The notes below the pieces were generated by a model. That model saw nothing but the letters and a program-made list of their open reading frames with translations, did no database searches and had not been told where the DNA came from. The position numbers and the translations under genes were made by a program. From contig CM075994.1 in NCBI GenBank assembly GCA_038087875.1, positions 1,924,001 through 1,988,000 of the forward strand: a stretch of 64,000 nucleotides of DNA. The letters are read 5' to 3'. The DNA comes from Malacoraja senta. Its lineage: Eukaryota. Positions 3,521 to 27,210 of this stretch are shown here, piece by piece. Within the stretch, counting starts at the first letter, position 1; the number at the start of each line of letters is the position of its first letter.

Positions 3521-4657
3521 ATAATAACCTCCTCACACATTTCCCCTGCAAGTATTTCTGTCACTCCTTTAAAATATGCCCCTTCTTTGAACAAGCTCTT
3601 AAACATCGCATCTGAATCAGTTTCCATCTGATTACACCCCTTGAGGATGTTCATCTATGTGTTGAATTAATAAAACAACGAGATTGGGGACATTTCTATT
3701 CAACCTGTCAAAGGAATTGGGGGAGGGGATTAGAAAGTCAATGAGGTAATCAAACGTAATAGTTGAGTGGCAAATGACAATAGTGCTACCTTCCCAATAT
3801 TTAACTGAAGGAAATAATGGGTTATCGGGGCTGTATGTTGTGACAGACAGCCTGACACCTTGCATGTCATTTTAATATTACACTTATCCCATCCCCCTGG
3901 ATATTCCGGATAAATAAATTAAGGTTTTGCCAACTATTACAAATCAGGCTAATTACAAATCAATAACATTAGCCAACTTTGAAACACGAAGCGCTGAGCA
4001 TTGGGATCCGGACATCATGGACAAATGGCCTCAGTTCCCCGCTCACATCTGGCAGTGCTCTCCGTCTGAACATCTCTCCCCTGCCGCTCGCCGGCCTCGC
4101 TCCATATCAGCCGCTTCCCGCAAATCCTTAAATTCAGACTGCTGCCGGGAGCAGGACATAGCCTCACTTGCTGCGCTGGGAGACACTGTATGGCATTCAC
4201 TGCCCGTGTCTTTCAATGTAAATTTGCATGGGGACATGCTTTGGAGGTGTGTGACGGTTGTCGGTCAAGTGAGAATAAGAGAGAATAAGAATGCTGCTGT
4301 CTTGTCAAGACGCGCACACAAGCAGTTGGTATTAGTATTGAACTTCTTGTTGATCACAGAATTTCTCACAACAGAGCGTGAGAGTGCGAGAATTGGGCGA
4401 AATGCGTGAATCTCACGCTCAATGTAGCGATGTTACAAAACCTACCTTCAGCGGCGCTGCAGATCTGCCAGTGGCTGTGTGTGTGACTCCGGCGCCTTTG
4501 AGGGGGGGGGGGGGTTTGTATCGCTTGTTGGAGAGGGATTTCCTCGGGCTGCTAGTCGATGAAGAAAAATCGATCGGACGTCCGTTCCAGTTTATTTTTT
4601 AAATCGCTGGACAATTTAATCGTTGGATTAAAGTAAAAAGCCCTCAATGCCTTCAAC

Positions 4658-4857
4658 NNNNNNNNNNNNNNNNNNNNNNNNNNNNNNNNNNNNNNNNNNN
4701 NNNNNNNNNNNNNNNNNNNNNNNNNNNNNNNNNNNNNNNNNNNNNNNNNNNNNNNNNNNNNNNNNNNNNNNNNNNNNNNNNNNNNNNNNNNNNNNNNNNN
4801 NNNNNNNNNNNNNNNNNNNNNNNNNNNNNNNNNNNNNNNNNNNNNNNNNNNNNNNNN
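4658..4857. other. Assembly gap (200 N)
   Basis: N run. Confidence 1.
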
Positions 4858-7338
4858 AGACGGGGTTTATCCCTAAGAGATACTCATCTAACAATATGAG
4901 ACGTCTACTCAACATAATGCATTCACACAAATCTGAAGATCAAGAATTATCAATTATTTCGCTGGATGCTGAAAAAGCATTTGATCAAGTAGAATGGAAT
5001 TATATGGACAAAGTATTACAAAAATTTCAACTGGGGGAGAATTTTATTCTATGGATCAAGTTACTATATAACAAACCTACAGCTAGAATACTAACTAATA
5101 ACATATTATCCTCGAAATTCCAACTATCAAGGGGAAATAGACAAGGATGCTCATTATCACCACAACTGTTTGCTCTCATTATTGAACCGCTAGCAGAAAA
5201 AATTAGAATACATCCTGATATCCATGGATATACTAAAGATTCATATAATAAAATATCTTTATACGCGGACGATATATTACTGTACATTACAAAACCTCAA
5301 ATCACTATACCAAATATATTAAATTTAATTGAAGATTTTGGATCTTTTTCTGGATATAGAATAAATTGGAATAAAAGTGAAATTATGTCAATAAAACCGA
5401 AAGATTCATCACATCTTTTAAAATTCCCTTTTAAAATAGCTACAGAAAAATTTAAATATTTGGGAATCGAAATTACCAGATCATATCAAGGTATGTTTAG
5501 GGCAAATTTTGACCCCTTACTTAATAAATTAAATACACTAATTAAATTTTGGAAAACGCTCCCGATGTCTTTAATAGGCCGAATAAACGCAATAAAAATT
5601 ATCTTTTTACCACAAATGTTATACCTATTTCAATCAATTCCTATATACTTACCAAAGAAGTTTTTTAAAAAACTCGACTCAGATATCACTAATTTTATAT
5701 GGGACTATAAATCACATAGAATACAAAAAACTCATCTGAATAAACCTAAAGTATTAGGGGGTTTATCACTACCTAATTTTATGTATTATTATTGGTCAGT
5801 AAATATTAAAAATATGATTCAACTGATGGATAACTCCGCCCAACAAGCGGACTGGATTGTAATGGAGAAAGAGGATTGCTCCTCTAGAAACATTGGAGCG
5901 ATCCTCCTCTCTCCAATGAAATTGAATAACATAAATTATAATAAGAACCCAATTATCCATAGTACAAAACAATCTGAATTTGGAAACAAATAAAACAAAA
6001 TTTAAAATTAAGAAATTTATCACTTTTATTACCTATAGTCAATAACCCTTTGTTTAATCCTTCTATTATAGATAAAGCTTATACACAATGGGATAGATTA
6101 GGAATTAAAACGCTTGGTGACTTGTATGAAACTGGAAAATTACTTTCATTTCAACAATTACAAATAAAATATAAACTCGGAAATAATCAATATTTTAAAT
6201 ATTTTCAAATATGCGACTATTTGAAAAAATATACAAAAGATCATCATAATAACCCAGCAGATGTACTGGACGAGGCAATGCAGATAAAAGCGGAATCAGC
6301 AAACTTAATATCATATTTGTATAATATTATCTTAAATGCACAAATACCACCTACGGAGGGTATCAGAAGAGACTGGGAACAAGAGTTAGCTATTAAAATT
6401 TCAAAGGAAAGTTGGAATGAATACTTATTAAATGTGCATAAATGCTCGATTAATGTAAGACACACTTTAATACAATTTAAAATTTTACATAGATTATATT
6501 AAACTAATAATTCTATGTAGTAAATTTTCCCAAATGTATCATCTATTTGTGATAAATGTCAATCCCAAGAAGCTACTATAACGCACTCATTCGTTTCTTG
6601 TACAAAAATTCAAAAATTTTGGAATGAAATTTTTGAAATCTTTACAAAGTTATTTAAAACAAGACTGATACCCAAAGCAGAATGGATTATCTTCGGTATA
6701 ACGGAAGATGGTCCAGAATTAAATGTGTTTCAAAAGAAACTAATGGACTATGGGTTAATAACTGGAAAAAAGCTAATTCTAAAATTTTGGAAGAAGGCTC
6801 CAATACCAACTATAAATATGTGGATTTCAAATATGTTTGAAACATTACACCTAGAAGAGATAAGAATCCTCCTAGCAGGTAAACCAGATCATTTCCACCT
6901 GACGTGGTCTGTATTTATAGAATTATTACAAACATAAGGTGCAAAAGTACTTTAAAAAAAAAAAAAAAAAATTGAGGTCAGGTAAGGGGGGATGATAGTT
7001 GAAGAGTTGGTATGTCCATTTTGCGTAATGCTCATAAAAATATTTGTTTCTCTCTTTTTCCTCTTTCTTTTTTTTCTAGGGTCTATTTCTTAACTCTTTT
7101 TCTTTTGTTTTTAATTTTGCTCTTATAGGGTCTTTGTCCTTTTTTGTTGTCACATTTCCTACACTTCCACTTTTTCCTTCACTTTCTTCTTTCTTTCAAT
7201 CTTTTCCTTTTCTAGTGTAAAAAATAAATGGAGTACATTAATTGTAAGAAGATATAAATGACAAGTACTAATGTATGTGGTTGTAATGTAATGTACTTCT
7301 AATAAAATACAAATTAAAAAAAAAAAATTAAAAAAAAA
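4858..7338 (+). mobile_element. L1-clade LINE: ORF2 (RT and C-terminal Cys region), 3'UTR and poly(A); 5' part lost in the gap
   Basis: LDAEKAFD, RGNRQGCSLSP, YADD, CDKC...HSFVSC; AATAAA then A-tail; frameshift near 5965 and disruption near 6500. Confidence 0.93.
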
Positions 7339-8254
7339 TAATGTTTGGCACCGACATGGAACAGGCTGCCAGAGGAGGTAGTTGAGGCAGGTACTATAAC
7401 AACATTTAAAAGACACATGGGCCGGTACATAGATAGGAAAAGCTTAGAGAGATATGGGCCAAACACGGGTATGTTAGTCGAGGCATCCTGGTTACCATGG
7501 ATGAGTTGGCCTGATTCTGTTTTGTATAACTCTATGATTGATGTTTTCGTTTTGGACCGGAAAAGTCACCGATGCATGTTCTCCAGAAACGCTAAGTTAC
7601 TCCAGTATTTTGTGTCTTTTTTTTAACCACTGGCTTAGTCTTTGCACACTGCCCTGTGGCTGAAAGGGTTAACTCAAAGCTGTGGATCTTTTATAAAAGG
7701 TTCCAAGGTGCGAGAACAAGATATACCAGTTGTGGGAGTGTGCAAGAGCAGAAGACAGCAAGATCTGTTTGTCCGTGGCTGCCGGTGTTACTGAGCTTTG
7801 TGCCCAGCTCACTCGGGACATCAGGGTCTAGATATCAACAGTCTTACAGGTTAGAGTCATAGAGTCATGCAGCACAGAGACAGGCCCTTCAGCCCAACTC
7901 ACCCATGCCAACCAACATGCCCATCTATACTAGTTTCACCTGCCCGTGTTTGGCCCATATCCCTCTAAACCTTTCCTGTCCATGTTCCTTAATGTCTTTT
8001 ACTGTAGTATTTGTGATAGTACCTGCCTCAACGACTTCCTCTGGCAGCTCGTTCCATACACCCACCACCCTCTGTGTGACAAAGTTAAATTAAATCTTGC
8101 CCCTGTCACCTTAAACCTATGTCCCCTGGTTCTCGATTCCCCTACCCTGGTTGAAGTCTCACCTTTTTTATTCCCCTCATGGTCGGCACGGACTCGGTGG
8201 ACTGAAGGGCCTGTTTCCATGCTGTATCCCTAAATTAAACTAAACTAAACTTTG

Positions 8255-9449: not shown

Positions 9450-9780
9450 GGGCCTGTCCCACTTAGGCGATTTTTCAGCGGACTGCCGGCGACTGTCAAG
9501 TTGCCAGCAGTCGCCTGAAAAAACGGCAACTGGAACGGTGATTGTCAGAGTGGAACACACAAACACATTGCTTCCTTCACCAGCCCGTGTGAATTTTTTA
9601 GACAGCGGTCCCCCCGCTTGCCCTGTCTAAAAAATTCACACTGTGCAAAGCCAAGGTGATACAGACACATGCCGCGATGAACAGGGAGGTTGGCGCTGTA
9701 ATTAAGACGGCTAAAGCACAGTGTACAGTAAGTCCTTTAAAAGAGGGGGGGGGGAGAGGGGGGGGGGGGTGGGAGAAGAA
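9450..9780 (+). mobile_element. Left half of a PIF/Harbinger-like MITE, abutting an L1
   Basis: Begins GGGCCTGTCCCACTTAGGCGA, similar to the TIR at 19101. Shares internal CACAGTGTAC.GTAAGTCCTTTA and a G-run with that element. Confidence 0.55.
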
Positions 9781-11410
9781 ATCACATAGAATACAAAAAA
9801 CTCATCTGAATAAACCTAAAGTATTAGGGGGTTTAGCACTACCTAATTTTATGTATTATTATTGGTCAGTAAATATTAAAAATATGATTCAACTGATGGA
9901 TAACTCCGCCCAACAAGCGGACTGGATTGTAATGGAGAAAGAGGATTGCTCCTCTAGAAACATTGGAGCGATCCTCCTCTCTCCAATGAAATTGAATAAC
10001 ATAAATTATAATAAGAACCCAATTATCCATAGTACAATCCGAATTTGGAAACAAATAAAACAAAATTTAAAATTAAGAAATTTATCACTTTTATTACCTA
10101 TAGTCAATAACCCTTTGTTTAATCCTTCTATTATAGATAAAGCTTATACACAATGGGATAGATTAGGAATTAAAATGCTTGGTGACTTGTATGAAACTGG
10201 AAAATTACTTTCATTTCAACAATTACAAATAAAATATAAACTCGGAAATAATCAATATTTTAAATATTTTCAAATATGCGACTATTTGAAAAAATATACA
10301 AAAGATCATCATAATAACCCAGCAGATGTACTGGACGAGGCAATGCAGATAAAAGCGGAATCAGCAAACTTAATATCATATTTGTATAATACTATCTTAA
10401 ATGCACAAATACCATCTACGGAGGGTATCAGAAGAGACTGGGAACAAGAGTTAGCTATTAAAATTTCAAAGGAAAGTTGGAATGAATACTTATTAAATGT
10501 GCATAAATGCTCGATTAATGTAAGACACACTTTAATACAATTTAAAATTTTACATAGATTATATTATTCGAAAACTAAAATTCATAAAATTTTCCCAAAT
10601 GTATCATCTATTTGTGATAAATGTCAATCCCAAGAAGCTACTATAACGCACTCATTCGTTTCTTGTACAAAAATTCAAAAATTTTGGAATGAAATTTTTG
10701 AAATCTTTACAAAGTTATTTAAAACAAGACTGATACCCAAAGCAGAATGGATTATCTTCGGTATAACGGAAGATGGTCCAGAATTAAATGTGTTTCAAAA
10801 GAAACTAATGGACTATGGGTTAATAACTGGAAAAAAGCGAATTCTAAAATTTTGGAAGAAGGCTCCAATACCAACTATAAATATGTGGATTTCAAATATG
10901 TTTGAAACATTACACCTAGAAGAGATAAGACTCCTCCTAGCAGGTAAACCAGATCATTTCCACCTGACGTGGTCTGTATTTATAGAATTATTACAAACAT
11001 AAGGTGCAAAAGTACTTTAAAAAAAATAAAAAAAAAATTGAGGTCTGGTAAGGGGGGATGATAGTTGAAGAGTTGGTATGTCCATTTTGCGTAATGCTCA
11101 TAAAAATATTTGTTTCTCTCTTTTTCCTCTTTCTCTCTTTTTTTCCTAGGGTCTATTTCTTAACTCTTTTTCTTTTGTTTTTAATTTTGCTCTTATAGGG
11201 TCTTTGTCCTTTTTTGTTGTCACATTTCCTACACTTCCACTTTTTCCTTCACTTTCTTCTTTCTTTCAATCTTTTCCTTTTCTAGTGTAAAAAATAAATG
11301 GAGTACATTAATTGTAAGAAGATATAAATGACAAGTACTAATGTATGTGGTTGTAATGTAATGTACTTCTAATAAAATACAAATTTAAAAAAAAATAAAA
11401 AAAAATAAAA
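9781..11410 (+). mobile_element. 5'-truncated L1-clade LINE, near-identical to 5711-7338
   Basis: Uninterrupted ORF2 C-terminus to 11002, same 3'UTR and poly(A). Confidence 0.93.
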
Positions 11411-14400
11411 AGGAATTGGAAGTGGGCTAGGGTTGGGTGAAAGCTAGAAGAGTCTCGACCTGAAACGTCACGTATTCCTTTTGTCGAGAGATACTGCCTG
11501 ACCTGCTGAGTTTCTCCAGCTTTTTGTATCTATCTTGATTGAAAACAACCCTGCCCTCATCAGCAGAGCTACTGTAAAGAAGGTTGACAGTTTTAAGTTC
11601 CTCGGCATCCATATCGCAGGCAACTTAACCTTGTACTTTCATACTGATGCAGTGAAGTAGGCTTGATGGGCCGAATGGCCTAATTCTCCTATCACTTTAT
11701 GAAAGCACATCAGTTTACAGTTTAAGATCTGAGAAGATTCGGTATGTCAGTGAGGATTCTCTCAACTCTACAGATACATTATACAAAGTATTCTGACTGT
11801 ATACATCGCAGCCTGGTATGGCAACTGCTCTGCTTATGACGACCTGAAACAGCAGAGAGTGAATATAACCCAGTCCATCGCAGGCTCGTCATTTCTTTCC
11901 ATCCAGTCAATCTTCACTGTGTCTTCATCAGGAAGGCTGGAAGTATAATCAAGGATACCTGTCCCCCTGGTGATTCCCTTTTACTATTATACCTTTTGGA
12001 AGAAGGAGCTTGCAAAGCTGCACGCCCAGATTTAAGAACAGCTTTGGTTTTAGAGATACAGCGTGGAAACAGGCCCTTTAGCCCACCGAGTCCCCGCCTA
12101 CCAACAATCACCCCATATACTAGTTTTATTCTACAAACTAGGGACAATTTACAGATACCAATTAACCTACAAACCTGTTCGTCTTTGCAGTGTGGGACGA
12201 AACCAGAGCACCTAGCCACGCGGTCACCGGGAGAACGTACAAACTCTGTACAGACAGCACCCATTGTCTAGATCGAACCCGGGTCTTTGTCTCTGTAAGG
12301 CAGCAGCTCTACCACTGTGCCACTCACAGCTTCTTCCTCACTGTTATCAGACTCCTGAACCAATCACCTTTTTCTCACCCCCTTTCTGGAGGTTCTGCCA
12401 TGCACTCTCACTATTAACTCTACCTCATTCAGTCATTGTTAGAATTTTCTTCAGATTGCTCTACAACCTTTGTACCATCCTGCTGTTTTGCATTTGTATT
12501 TATTGCTTTAACTATCATTGCCATGTATACTGTTTACTCTCTTACATCATCATGCGAACAAGGAATTTTATTGCACCCTGGTGTATATAAGAAACTAATC
12601 TGAGTCTAAATTTTCAGAAATGAAATTGCCTGCTGCCACAGTAATTTCCAAATAACATTCCTCTGGATGTGTGGGTGGGTTGCTATATATATAGGAATAT
12701 ATCATACTCATTATATAAAATTCAAAGATCCCACATTCTCCATTTGGCACTGTGTAGTTCAGGGAAATGTCGTAGAAGCTTATTGAATTTATCAAGAGTG
12801 GTGGCATACTTAACCAATCAGTAACCAAGGTTACGCTGCAAGAGGCAGAATTACTTTTAGTGCAGAAGTACAACCAAAGTAAAACACTGAATTTGTTGCC
12901 TAGTAACACTGTCTTGTCTCGTTGTCAGCAAACTCATTAGAAATTTGTTCTGCACCCTCCCACTTTTGTCAAAGAGACAATTTGTTGTTGGCCTACAGAC
13001 TTCACTCCATAAATGTTTGCCTTCCACATCCCAAATGTTTGCAGTGCAGCTGCCCTCTCTGAAGAAGGCCCTCTTCAGACAGTGTGATGTGTAGATTCAG
13101 TCAAGGGTGGGAAAACTGGTCTGTGTGAAAGAGTGGGTTATATCCACAACTCTGCAATTTCTTGCAGAGGGAAAGCCAAGCATCAGGGCTAGAAATACAA
13201 TTCAGTTCCCACTGATACTCCTGGCACTTATAATAGTCACAAAGATTTTAATGAGACTGGAAGACTTGAGTTATAAGCAGAGACTGGATTGGCTGGGATC
13301 TTTCTCTGGAGTGCAGGAAGTAGAATGGTGACATTATAGAAGTTTATAAAATTATTAGGCCAAAGATGAGCCACGTTACTATAAAACTTGCAATGAACCA
13401 AGTTATTATGAATCTGTAAAGCGTAGGAGCAGGCCCTTCAACCCATAATATATGCAACAAACATGATGCCAAGTTAAACTGATCTTCTCTACCAACACGT
13501 GATCCATTTCCTCCATTCCTTGCATGTCCATGCGCCATCATAGTAAATGCCACTATTGTTTCTGTCTTAGTTTATTTTATTGTCATGTGTGCTGAGGAAG
13601 TGAAATGCTTTTATTGCATAAAGAATATACATGATTACAATCGAGCCATCCACAGTGCCTCCACCACTGCCCCTAGCAGCACGTTCCACTCTTGTCAAAA
13701 ACATGTCCCGCACATAATTTTTAATTTTGCTCCTCTCACATAAAGGAGTCCCCTCTGGTCTTTGACATTTCCATCCAGCAGAAAATGTTCTGACTGTCTA
13801 CCTCATCTATGCCACACATCATTTTAAATACTTCTATCATGTCTCCCCTCAGCCTCTTGACACTCGAGAGAAAACAATCCAAGTTTATCTAACCTCCTCT
13901 TATAGTTAATACCCTCTAATCCAGACAGCATTCTGGTAACCTACGTGATAAGAAACCAGAGCACCTGGAGAAAACCCACACGGTCACAGGGTGAACGTGC
14001 AAACTCCACACAGCTCTGGAAGTGCAGGCAGGTTCAGCCCAAGCAGGCATTCTATGTGGCCAAAGCAACAAACAACCATTATGACACATCATAAATGGGT
14101 GTTCCGTTAAGCAGCATCACCAATTAACCCATTAAATGGTCCCAATCAACAATAGCCCGCAGAAACCAGTTGCCAGCTGACTAAATTATTCATCACTTCA
14201 GAAATAAATTGGCAGATTCATCCCAACCGAACCCTCAGGTTAGTTTGCTGTAATCTTTCCCTCCAGCTGAATGATGTAGGTATGGAACTCAGAACTGAGG
14301 TAAATCACTCTACCAGGATTCTTTTCATATGAATAATAAGGAATTAATTTTGTCTGCCAGGACCTACAAAGTAACCTCTTTCCTTGTCCAAGTGTATATT

Positions 14401-25062: not shown

Positions 25063-25518
25063 TACACAGTGGAGCAGCACTGCTTGTTGATACGGTTAGG
25101 AGAATGTGGAACTTTAACAGAAAAAGTTTTCTGGCAATCTGGCTGAACCCACCATCTTCTGCCTCCTTTAGATTTAGGGTTGAGTTTATTATTGTCAGAT
25201 GTTCTGAGCTACAGTGAAAAGCTTTTTTCTTTGCGTATCATCCAAGTAGATCAGATATATCATACATAGATACAATCAGTTCAAACTCCTACTCCTTTAG
25301 TTTAGTTTATCGATACAGCACAGAAACAGGCCCCTCTGCCCACCGAGTCTGTGTTGACCAGCGATCCCCGTACACTAGCACTATCCTACACACTAGGGAC
25401 AATTTTACTCGTCAATTAACCTATAAACGTGTACGTGTTTGGAATGTGGGTGGAAATTGGAGCACCCAGAGAATACCCACGCGGTCATGGGAAGAACATA
25501 CAAACTACGTACAAAGAG

Positions 25519-26184
25519 TGTAAAGAATCTATAACGAGGCATCGTTACTTTACTATCTTTATTCATACTGGAGCATTACATATTGCACTAGCTGTACGTG
25601 GTCTGTCACAGGAACTAGAGAGCGATCTGTGGGTGGGGAGGTTGTACTTATACTTGTGATATGGGGAGTGGTTAGTAGGTATGAGGTCACTATGTTAAAG
25701 GCACATGCATATCTCATCTACATCCTTCCCCTCCGAATCGACAGGCAAATACAATGGTGACAGGGCGACCACGGCTCATGCGCTAGGATGGTTAAACAAA
25801 ATCGCCATGGCGGACAGGCGGTTTGACAAGACGTCCCGACCGGGTTCGCGTCTCGCCATCCTCCCTTCCGGCAGGAGGAAGAAGCACTGATGGGGACAGA
25901 CGAACCTGAAAGGGGGAAACGGGAGGAGACGGAGGAGACCGCGGCACCAGGCGTGGGTTCGAATCCCACTTCTGACACCATGTAAAGAATCTATAACGAG
26001 GCATCGTTACTTTACTATCTTTATTCATACTGGAGCATTACATATTGCACTAGCTGTACGTGGTCTGTCACAGGAACTAGAGAGCGATCTGTGGGTGGGG
26101 AGGTTGTACTTGTACTTGTGATATGGGGAGTGGTTAGTAGGTATGAGGTCACTATGTTAAAGGCACATGCATATCTCATCTACA
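25519..26184 (-). mobile_element. TRIM-like miniature LTR retrotransposon: LTRs 25519-25722 and 25981-26184, 258-bp internal region
   Basis: Two 204-bp TG...CA repeats; 5-bp TSD AAGAG (25514-18 and 26185-89); PBS TGGTGTCAGAAGTGGGAT next to one LTR; PPT AGGGGAAGGA next to the other; inserted in a SINE. Confidence 0.93.
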
Positions 26185-27210
26185 AAGAGCACCCGTCGTC
26201 AGGATTGAATCCGGGTCTCTGGCGCTGTAAGGCAGCAATTCTACTGCTGCGCCACTGTGACGCCCTCTCCTGCTTCTCCGACAAGAAGCCAGCTGTTATG
26301 AAAGGCCTGGATAGAGTGGATGTGGAGTGGATGTTTACACTAGTGGTAGAGTCTAGGACCAGAGGGCACAGCATAAAAGAACGGAGCATTAAATAGGAGA
26401 TGAGGAGGAATTTCTTTAGCCAGGTGGTGGTGAATCTGTGGAATTCATTGCCACAGGCCGCTGTGGAGGCCAAGCCATATTTTTACAGCAGAGATTGACA
26501 GATTCTTGATTATCATGGGTGTCATGGGTTTATGGGGAGAAGGCAGGAAAATGGGGTTGAAAGGGAAAGATAGATCAGCACTATTGAAAGGCGGAGTAGA
26601 CTTGATGGGCTGAATGGTCTAATTTTGCTCCTTTGACGAACTTATGAGGCAGAGAGTTTGTCTTTGTTTTTGGATGATCGGTACCCTCCAGTGTCCTGTT
26701 TTACAATCTAATAATTAGGCAAAAGAGACATGGATTTATCTCTGATAGCTTGGATCATACACTGGCTTGGCGATTGAACTGCAGGCTTTCACTGATTAGT
26801 TTTGTATTATGTTTGATCTGGAAGCCTTTTCTCGTCTACTTTGGCGTTGTGCTATGTTGTTTGCAATGCTGCAACTTTTATTTCCAGTGTAGACCTCACG
26901 ACAGAATTTCAAAACTGAAAAAGAAAGACTTGCATTTTGAAAAGTACCTCTCATGAATTCAGGACATCCCAAAGCACTTTTTCAGCCAACGAATCGCTAG
27001 TCAAATGCAGCAACGCAGCTGCAGCATAGGAAAATGCAGCAACATTGAGAAATGCAACAACATAGGGAAATGCAGCAGCACTGCTGTAAGATAGGGAAAT
27101 GCAACAGCCAATTTGCACTCCTAAAGGAACCATAAATATCACCAGATGGTGAGCTGGCAAAAGCTGGAGTAACTCAGCGGGACAGGCAGCATCTCTGGAG
27201 AGAAGGAATG

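Follow-up and report, generated by a model that had tools for sequence, protein, structure and literature searches.

Work on how reverse transcriptase (RT) handles a modified tRNA primer in vivo has been confined almost entirely to HIV and yeast. Deletions that result from faulty plus-strand transfer were reportedly described in a retroviral vector by Pulsinelli and Temin in 1991. The event discussed here works alike: in the locus under study a tRNA copy starts at the end of the 5′ LTR and includes the CCA, the intervening 4113–4114 nt of the parent are lost, and the deletion leaves both LTRs and the target-site duplication intact. The two cases differ in that theirs was rare and concerned a cultured vector, whereas the present one is fixed in a germ line in hundreds of copies and in many LTR families, and it is accompanied by stops and apparent misreads at several tRNA positions.

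In HIV-1 the main plus-strand stop lies before A58, and minor products reach later modified bases or the tRNA's 5′ end (PMC8599865; PMC13191261); in the accessible text of the first of these accounts, such read-through prevents completion and integration (PMC8599865). Set against what that text describes, the read-through products found here were integrated, mostly as deletions, and their later stops fall in the variable loop of tRNA-Leu and at G37. The yeast elements Ty1 and Ty3 have a short or bipartite primer-binding site (PBS) along with, in the accessible part of the account, a primer sequence that is not inherited (PMC5371799). Elements of the Gypsy C-clade (SURL/Steamer-like) are given LTRs of approximately 150–220 bp of the TG...CA type, a length of 4.5–5 kb and a 12-nt PBS for tRNA-Leu, in an account whose accessible text makes no mention of read-through copies (PMC8905726). 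A search of the main texts of mostly open-access papers returned no account of read-through copies that are fixed in a genome and bear signatures of modification; within that literature, three things appear to be new: the scale of the event, its association with a short PBS, and a genomic record of modification at several sites.

The window element and its intact parents

The window, by which we mean the whole stretch of 64,000 nucleotides of the Malacoraja senta assembly GCA_038087875.1 that was analysed (contig CM075994.1), holds an element of 666 bp on the minus strand, running from 26184 to 25519, with two LTRs of 204 bp and 258 nt between them. The 5′ LTR (25981–26184) and the 3′ LTR (25519–25722) both have TG...CA ends and differ at 1 of 204 bases, and the element is bounded by identical 5-bp target-site duplications (25514–25518 and 26185–26189). 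Adjoining the 3′ LTR, also on the minus strand, is a purine-rich 17-mer, likewise present in the siblings, which forms the polypurine tract (25723–25739); it is part of a region (25723–25948) that comparison with the siblings identifies as the final 226 nt of the parent's internal sequence, that is, the tail of the integrase frame and the 3′ UTR. The TRIM-type set of features is present (less than 1 kb, non-coding, two LTRs, PBS, polypurine tract and duplication), but unlike a TRIM the window element is single-copy and not an amplified family, and it would exemplify how an element of TRIM shape might arise within one round. The insertion lies inside a copy of an abundant SINE-like repeat (25306–25513 and 26190–26256; families D5, D20 and D8). 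Elsewhere in the window an AT-rich fragment that resembles a LINE and matches RT and zf-RVT is duplicated almost identically at a spacing of approximately 4.07 kb (4632–7341 and 9602–11411).

Between the 5′ LTR and the parental remnant lies a 32-nt stretch of DNA copied from the 3′ terminus of a mature tRNA-Leu (25949–25980, minus strand), whose CCA sits directly against LTR base 25981, as the initial annotation had observed. It consists of the standard 18-nt part (25963–25980) and a read-through part (25949–25962), and its last base, 25949, is common to the tRNA copy and the parent, so that the two overlap by one base at the join. The whole T-arm is indeed captured (25953–25969), together with four bases of the variable region, and the base corresponding to A58 (25962, plus strand) is the correct one. 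Compared with the host tRNA-Leu genes, the match runs for exactly 32 nt once CCA is appended, and thus well past 18 nt; the same 32 nt are given by an intron-containing CAA gene (L170/L203) and by the CAG genes L171 and L172, none of which encodes the CCA. The proposed assignment to tRNA-Leu(CAA) therefore holds for tRNA-Leu only, since CAA and CAG genes give identical sequence and the anticodon is unreadable from the window 32-mer. An exact 32-nt match at the end of an LTR is far beyond chance; in a control, a reversed 24-mer pattern gave no match in the whole genome, against 306 for the real one. ARAGORN called no tRNA gene in the window, and Rfam returned only a weak T-arm match there (E 5.1).

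The initial annotation had also proposed that the copy leaves an intact B-box able to bind TFIIIC, and a site complementary to 3′ tRNA fragments. Using the consensus motifs of the A-box and B-box, the B-box itself was recovered as the one match in the window, in the T-loop of the tRNA copy and antisense to the element (25956–25966, plus strand), with 0.85 matches expected by chance for a window of this size. The two suggested roles found no support: no A-box lies alongside it in 25861–25990, at 0 or 1 mismatch and up to 100 nt upstream of the B-box, and for fragment pairing the usual 18 nt suffice, which are present at 1269 places. The same T-loop B-box is carried by 259 places in the genome (exact 28-mer matches). 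As judged from sequence, it is best taken as a by-product, the T-loop of a captured tRNA, with nothing to indicate a function, and the single window locus is probably inert.

As an alternative to read-through it was proposed that the element itself uses an extended primer pairing, which its siblings would then share, and here the comparison gave the opposite result. In the best 40 of 2774 candidates from a genome-wide DNA search, the match begins no earlier than the last base of the 32-mer in 38 cases, and it is full-length and identical in only one. Twenty sibling stretches were fetched, chosen by the likeness of their 3′ end to that of the window copy, and 14 of them open with an 8-nt complement of the tRNA, which a 14-nt spacer separates from a 7-nt box complementary to the tRNA positions immediately 5′ of the T-arm. 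Approximately 4.3 kb of internal sequence is present in 12 of these 14 and in one more with a shortened spacer, and the longer tRNA match is absent from all 13. The split site (8 nt, spacer and 7-nt box) occurs 663 times in the genome. Four full-length siblings differ from the window copy by 3–4 mismatches in 430 nt including the LTR (99% identity), and relative to them the window copy is without 4113–4114 nt of the internal region, while its junction has a single match in the assembly at up to 2 mismatches. The siblings pair over 8 nt, 4.1 kb have been lost and the junction occurs a single time; the 32-mer therefore marks where the deletion was joined and is not the PBS of the family.

Two other candidates were discarded along the way. 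The bases after the 32-mer, considered as a second PBS for tRNA-His, are ordinary sequence of the parent's integrase tail, and the only other whole-query match, L002 (91%), belongs to a different subfamily and has no tRNA copy at its join, its layout being LTR, 3′ end, LTR and short PBS. L002 and L093 are tandem arrays with a shared middle LTR; L093 has three LTRs and a 14-nt tRNA copy in both units.

The parent has LTRs of 204 bp with TG...CA ends and a full length of 4748 bp. In sibling L097, the only copy with frames listed, the Pfam domains follow the Gypsy order (RVT_1 159–310, RNase H 374–504, integrase 613–772) and are accompanied by two overlapping reading frames. The closest named relative of the parent's RT comes from a skate (74%), the relatives are annotated as K02A2.6-like, and no reference Steamer or SURL protein is among the matches listed. 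By its size, LTR length and primer the parent would fit the Gypsy C-clade as described in the accessible account, which it resembles in LTR size, element length, the same tRNA-Leu primer and the K02A2.6-like relatives, these names being a hint only and not a tree. Of the 12 PBS bases in that description (PMC8905726) this family has just 8, and a second family has 15 nt. A single gag-pol frame is expected for the clade; L097 has two overlapping frames, an observation on this one copy.

In the intact parents, the predicted partners of the second box are the variable arm of the tRNA and the 5′ side of its T-arm. Its predicted duplex energy was beaten by 47 and by 14 of 2000 shuffles in two families, in a region picked post hoc, so that extended primer pairing may occur in intact parents, with modest support. 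Part of the conserved spacer between the 8-nt PBS and the box (leader positions 14–22 in L139–L168) reads on the opposite strand as a consensus 5′ splice site, like the 5′ end of U1 snRNA. Normal progeny would not inherit the primer sequence, which fits a route like that of Ty1 and Ty3: the 663 split-site copies retain non-tRNA letters beyond base 8, and in the second family, with its 15-nt PBS, 5 of 30 copies share PBS mismatches. As far as the accessible account of the yeast elements goes (PMC5371799), the short PBS with non-tRNA letters behind it and the transmission of PBS mismatches are alike, whereas a vertebrate Gypsy element primed by tRNA-Leu, with a second box 14 nt downstream, is unlike.

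Read-through copies across the genome

An 18-nt tRNA copy next to an LTR-like end is found at 1269 places, and in a sample of 100 of them (the first 100 sites, which all lie on contig C1) 37 continue into the T-arm; when parent sequence was put through this test as a control, 12 of 4300 positions were positive. Thirty loci sampled from the 306 exact 24-mers all sit at LTR-like ends, in many LTR families, and with a CCA that is not genomic. Within the element's own family, 28 copies have 18 nt or more, and in 12 of these the match reaches 28–49 nt.

These extensions go together with loss of the sequence behind them. Of 60 read-through loci, 49 lack the sequence immediately behind the copy, 3 were not scored as deleted and 8 gave no clear call, with calls for the distant families based on tblastn to one sibling. 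The comparison set of 30 split-PBS loci contained 29 true split sites (the thirtieth was a read-through copy), none of which was deleted and all of which keep their 5′ end (Fisher p 6e-19 for the loci with a clear call). When the 108 distinct read-through places were clustered by junction, 101 groups resulted, of which 97 have a single member, and most read-through copies are therefore separate events; these singleton junctions suggest that each deletion would arise within one round of reverse transcription. The extension in the window copy marks the 4.1-kb deletion; events of this type are frequent in many LTR families and number at least several hundred.

Not all 18-nt sites are copying errors, given that 21 of 69 short sites share their downstream sequence, which points to a fixed 18-nt PBS in several families. 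One lineage of this kind, amplified and non-autonomous in appearance (L247, L248, L251, L266, L267, L276, L277, L281, L295, L306 and L309), accounts for 11 of the 100 sampled sites, and its LTR is common to the family whose intact copies pair over 15 nt. Nor is read-through always a dead end: the 5′ end of L052 is intact, and one 35-nt form (G000, L385–L392) has been amplified to 8 places with a shared junction. All 7 flanks inspected in the latter differ, and the A58 base is correct in all 8 copies, as would follow from a tRNA copy that is not made anew in each round. In five loci (L052, L031, L317, L364 and L378) tRNA copies of 18–37 nt rejoin at or near the parent's own leader, and the 5′ end looks intact in four of them; such rejoining could be a route for resetting the length of the PBS.

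Changes and stops at positions of known tRNA modification

The proposal that RT had read through A58 is strongly supported by changes and end points at this position throughout the genome. Apart from the 259 exact matches, the 28-mer search recovered 137 copies changed at position 19, opposite A58, and 130 changed across the other 27 positions together, so that the rate at A58 is 35% (137 of 396 copies) against approximately 2% per other position, a 28-fold excess. In the first 100 changed copies listed the base opposite A58 is A in 62, C in 28 and G in 10; transversion leads, and the spectrum is therefore not that of ordinary decay. It is described that m1A causes arrest and a context-dependent misreading (PMC4787781, in the part accessible).

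The next signal lies at C47d, position 36 of the copy, which is C in all 10 complete tRNA-Leu(CAA/CAG) genes found. At this position 47 of 60 long copies differ, reading A in 38, T in 5 and C in 4 and thus showing all three other bases, and they do so in both variable-loop types, while the following base is correct in all 60. Copies also end just before it, at 35 nt: 27 of 59 did so in a first pass, a count that is too high because a single variable-loop type was used as reference and cut some long copies at 35 nt, and 11 of 30 did so in an unselected sample. The gene set found is incomplete, and variants of tRNA genes that were not seen could explain part of the C47d signal; hidden alleles at position 36 would have to add three more bases, and to do so on both loop types. 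The variable-loop type most frequent in the long copies (46 of 60) has its only matches in L210 and L211. In these two tRNA-Leu(CAA) genes a T-loop base is variant; because the read-through copies have the usual base there, the source gene of this loop type is not among the genes found. At position 9 of the long copies, 5 of 60 have A instead of G, A being the parent's letter; this is possibly mixed inheritance at the edge of the PBS or an unseen tRNA allele.

Farther on, 54 of the 60 copies that reach 47 nt end at 47–50 nt, at G37, and of the five that go past 55 nt four are changed at position 50 (G37) and all five follow the spliced tRNA. Near G26 two copies end at 60–61 nt and one is changed at 61–62, a signal of 3 copies only. 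One locus, L212, carries the whole 87-nt spliced tRNA-Leu(CAA) with CCA on an apparent LTR end, and its four methylation sites are unchanged, as an unmodified primer would give. ARAGORN calls L212 a tRNA gene, and copies of this kind can inflate tRNA gene counts.

The four positions are those at which human Leu-CAG carries m1A58, m3C47d, m1G37 and m2,2G26 (PMC5066629), and in zebrafish m3C47d is present on Leu-CAG and Ser (bioRxiv 10.1101/2024.01.30.575011), according to the accessible text of both sources. The changed bases would accordingly represent misreads at m1A58, m3C47d, m1G37 and m2,2G26, the same stops and misreads on which misincorporation-based tRNA sequencing relies in the accessible accounts (PMC5066629; PMC4787781; bioRxiv 10.1101/2024.01.30.575011). 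The difference is that the present ones would have been made in vivo by the element's own enzyme and stored in the genome, and that m3C47d, reported in those sources on Leu-CAG and Ser, here gives its signal on CAA-type copies. The window copy ends 3–4 nt short of the 35-nt peak. Both bypass of a methylated A58 and an unmethylated primer are possible for it, and it does not separate the two because its A58 base is correct.

Origin of the junction and its meaning

[quoted passage not shown] Plus-strand strong-stop DNA would run 31–32 nt into the primer, past A58, and RNase H would free the plus-strand tail. Such a tail could not seat on an 8-nt PBS and would instead be clamped end to end, nearly blunt, onto a minus strand that was still unfinished, copied just 226 nt beyond the 3′ LTR, after which both strands would be completed and the product integrated. 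Intact copies would arise by the route resembling that of Ty1 and Ty3, in which the tRNA copy is not inherited. Retroviral and Tf1 RTs are known to clamp 2-nt overlaps in vitro, in the accessible part of the report (PMC3035444).

The read-through could be real and the join nevertheless made by homology-guided invasion into a complete minus strand, with no end-to-end clamp, a version that we regard as unlikely. In two loci, L052 and L031, parental sequence does restart at the 7-nt box, a site that offers homology. Most mappable junctions, that of the window included, share only 0–2 nt with the landing site. Junctions were mapped at 19 of 88 loci, 7 of them too diverged to be read, and among the 12 readable ones the overlap is 0–2 nt in 8 and outside this range in 4, so that microhomology-guided invasion was mostly not found.

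It is far less probable that the 32 nt are an inherited and selected extended PBS. The amplification of the 35-nt form in another lineage, with 8 copies, different flanks in the 7 inspected and a correct A58, shows that a long form can be propagated, and the second tRNA-complementary box of the intact parents, with its 47 and 14 of 2000 shuffles, points in the same direction. However, the window junction is single-copy and the intact siblings have 8 nt, and lengths are scattered from 18 to 87 nt, tracking the modification sites with no fixed length.

We give just as little credence to a later patch, in which DNA repair at a deletion break in the integrated element would have used as template a tRNA gene, a tRNA-derived SINE or a tRNA retrocopy made by a LINE. 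End joining also yields near-blunt joins, and the window is rich in SINE-like repeats and LINE-like RT frames, but a patch of this origin would have to start exactly at the LTR end with a non-genomic CCA, as the copy does here and at all 30 sampled loci, and the long copies are spliced and changed at modification sites; there is no reason for repair to strike one position hundreds of times. Least probable of all is an assembly chimera or collapsed repeat, for which speak the repeat-rich region and a junction left unbridged in the contigs of four public runs (too fragmented to bridge it, and with joints near the empty site that derive from the flanking repeat), and against which stand the matching 5-bp duplications, the one-base LTR difference and approximately 100 analogous distinct junctions elsewhere, with chemically patterned errors that are not expected from assembly.

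For the preferred reading, a copy of the primer captured during reverse transcription, the interest lies in the genome-wide pattern, seen in one assembly, rather than in the window locus. We consider it reasonably likely, with less assurance than for the junction itself, that animal genomes with short-PBS Gypsy elements carry a datable record of tRNA modification, in which each junction is one germ-line read of a mature tRNA, and that primer capture is a main source of deleted copies. If this is true, the record covers m1A58, m3C47d, m1G37 and m2,2G26 through stop and misread, and it predicts m3C47d on tRNA-Leu(CAA) in the host lineage. Read-through, which has been described as a dead end, is seen here in approximately one third of the LTR-flanking copies sampled, and its products integrate; primer capture would seed new TRIM-like or long-PBS lineages and explain many internal deletions. 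For annotation, a PBS of at least 18 nt in these families would often mark a defective copy, the true PBS being shorter. The position-specific stops and misreads would allow a natural enzyme's rates of bypass and error in vivo to be estimated, and tRNA modifications could be inferred in germ lines without RNA data, and in the past, with the divergence of the LTRs dating each read.
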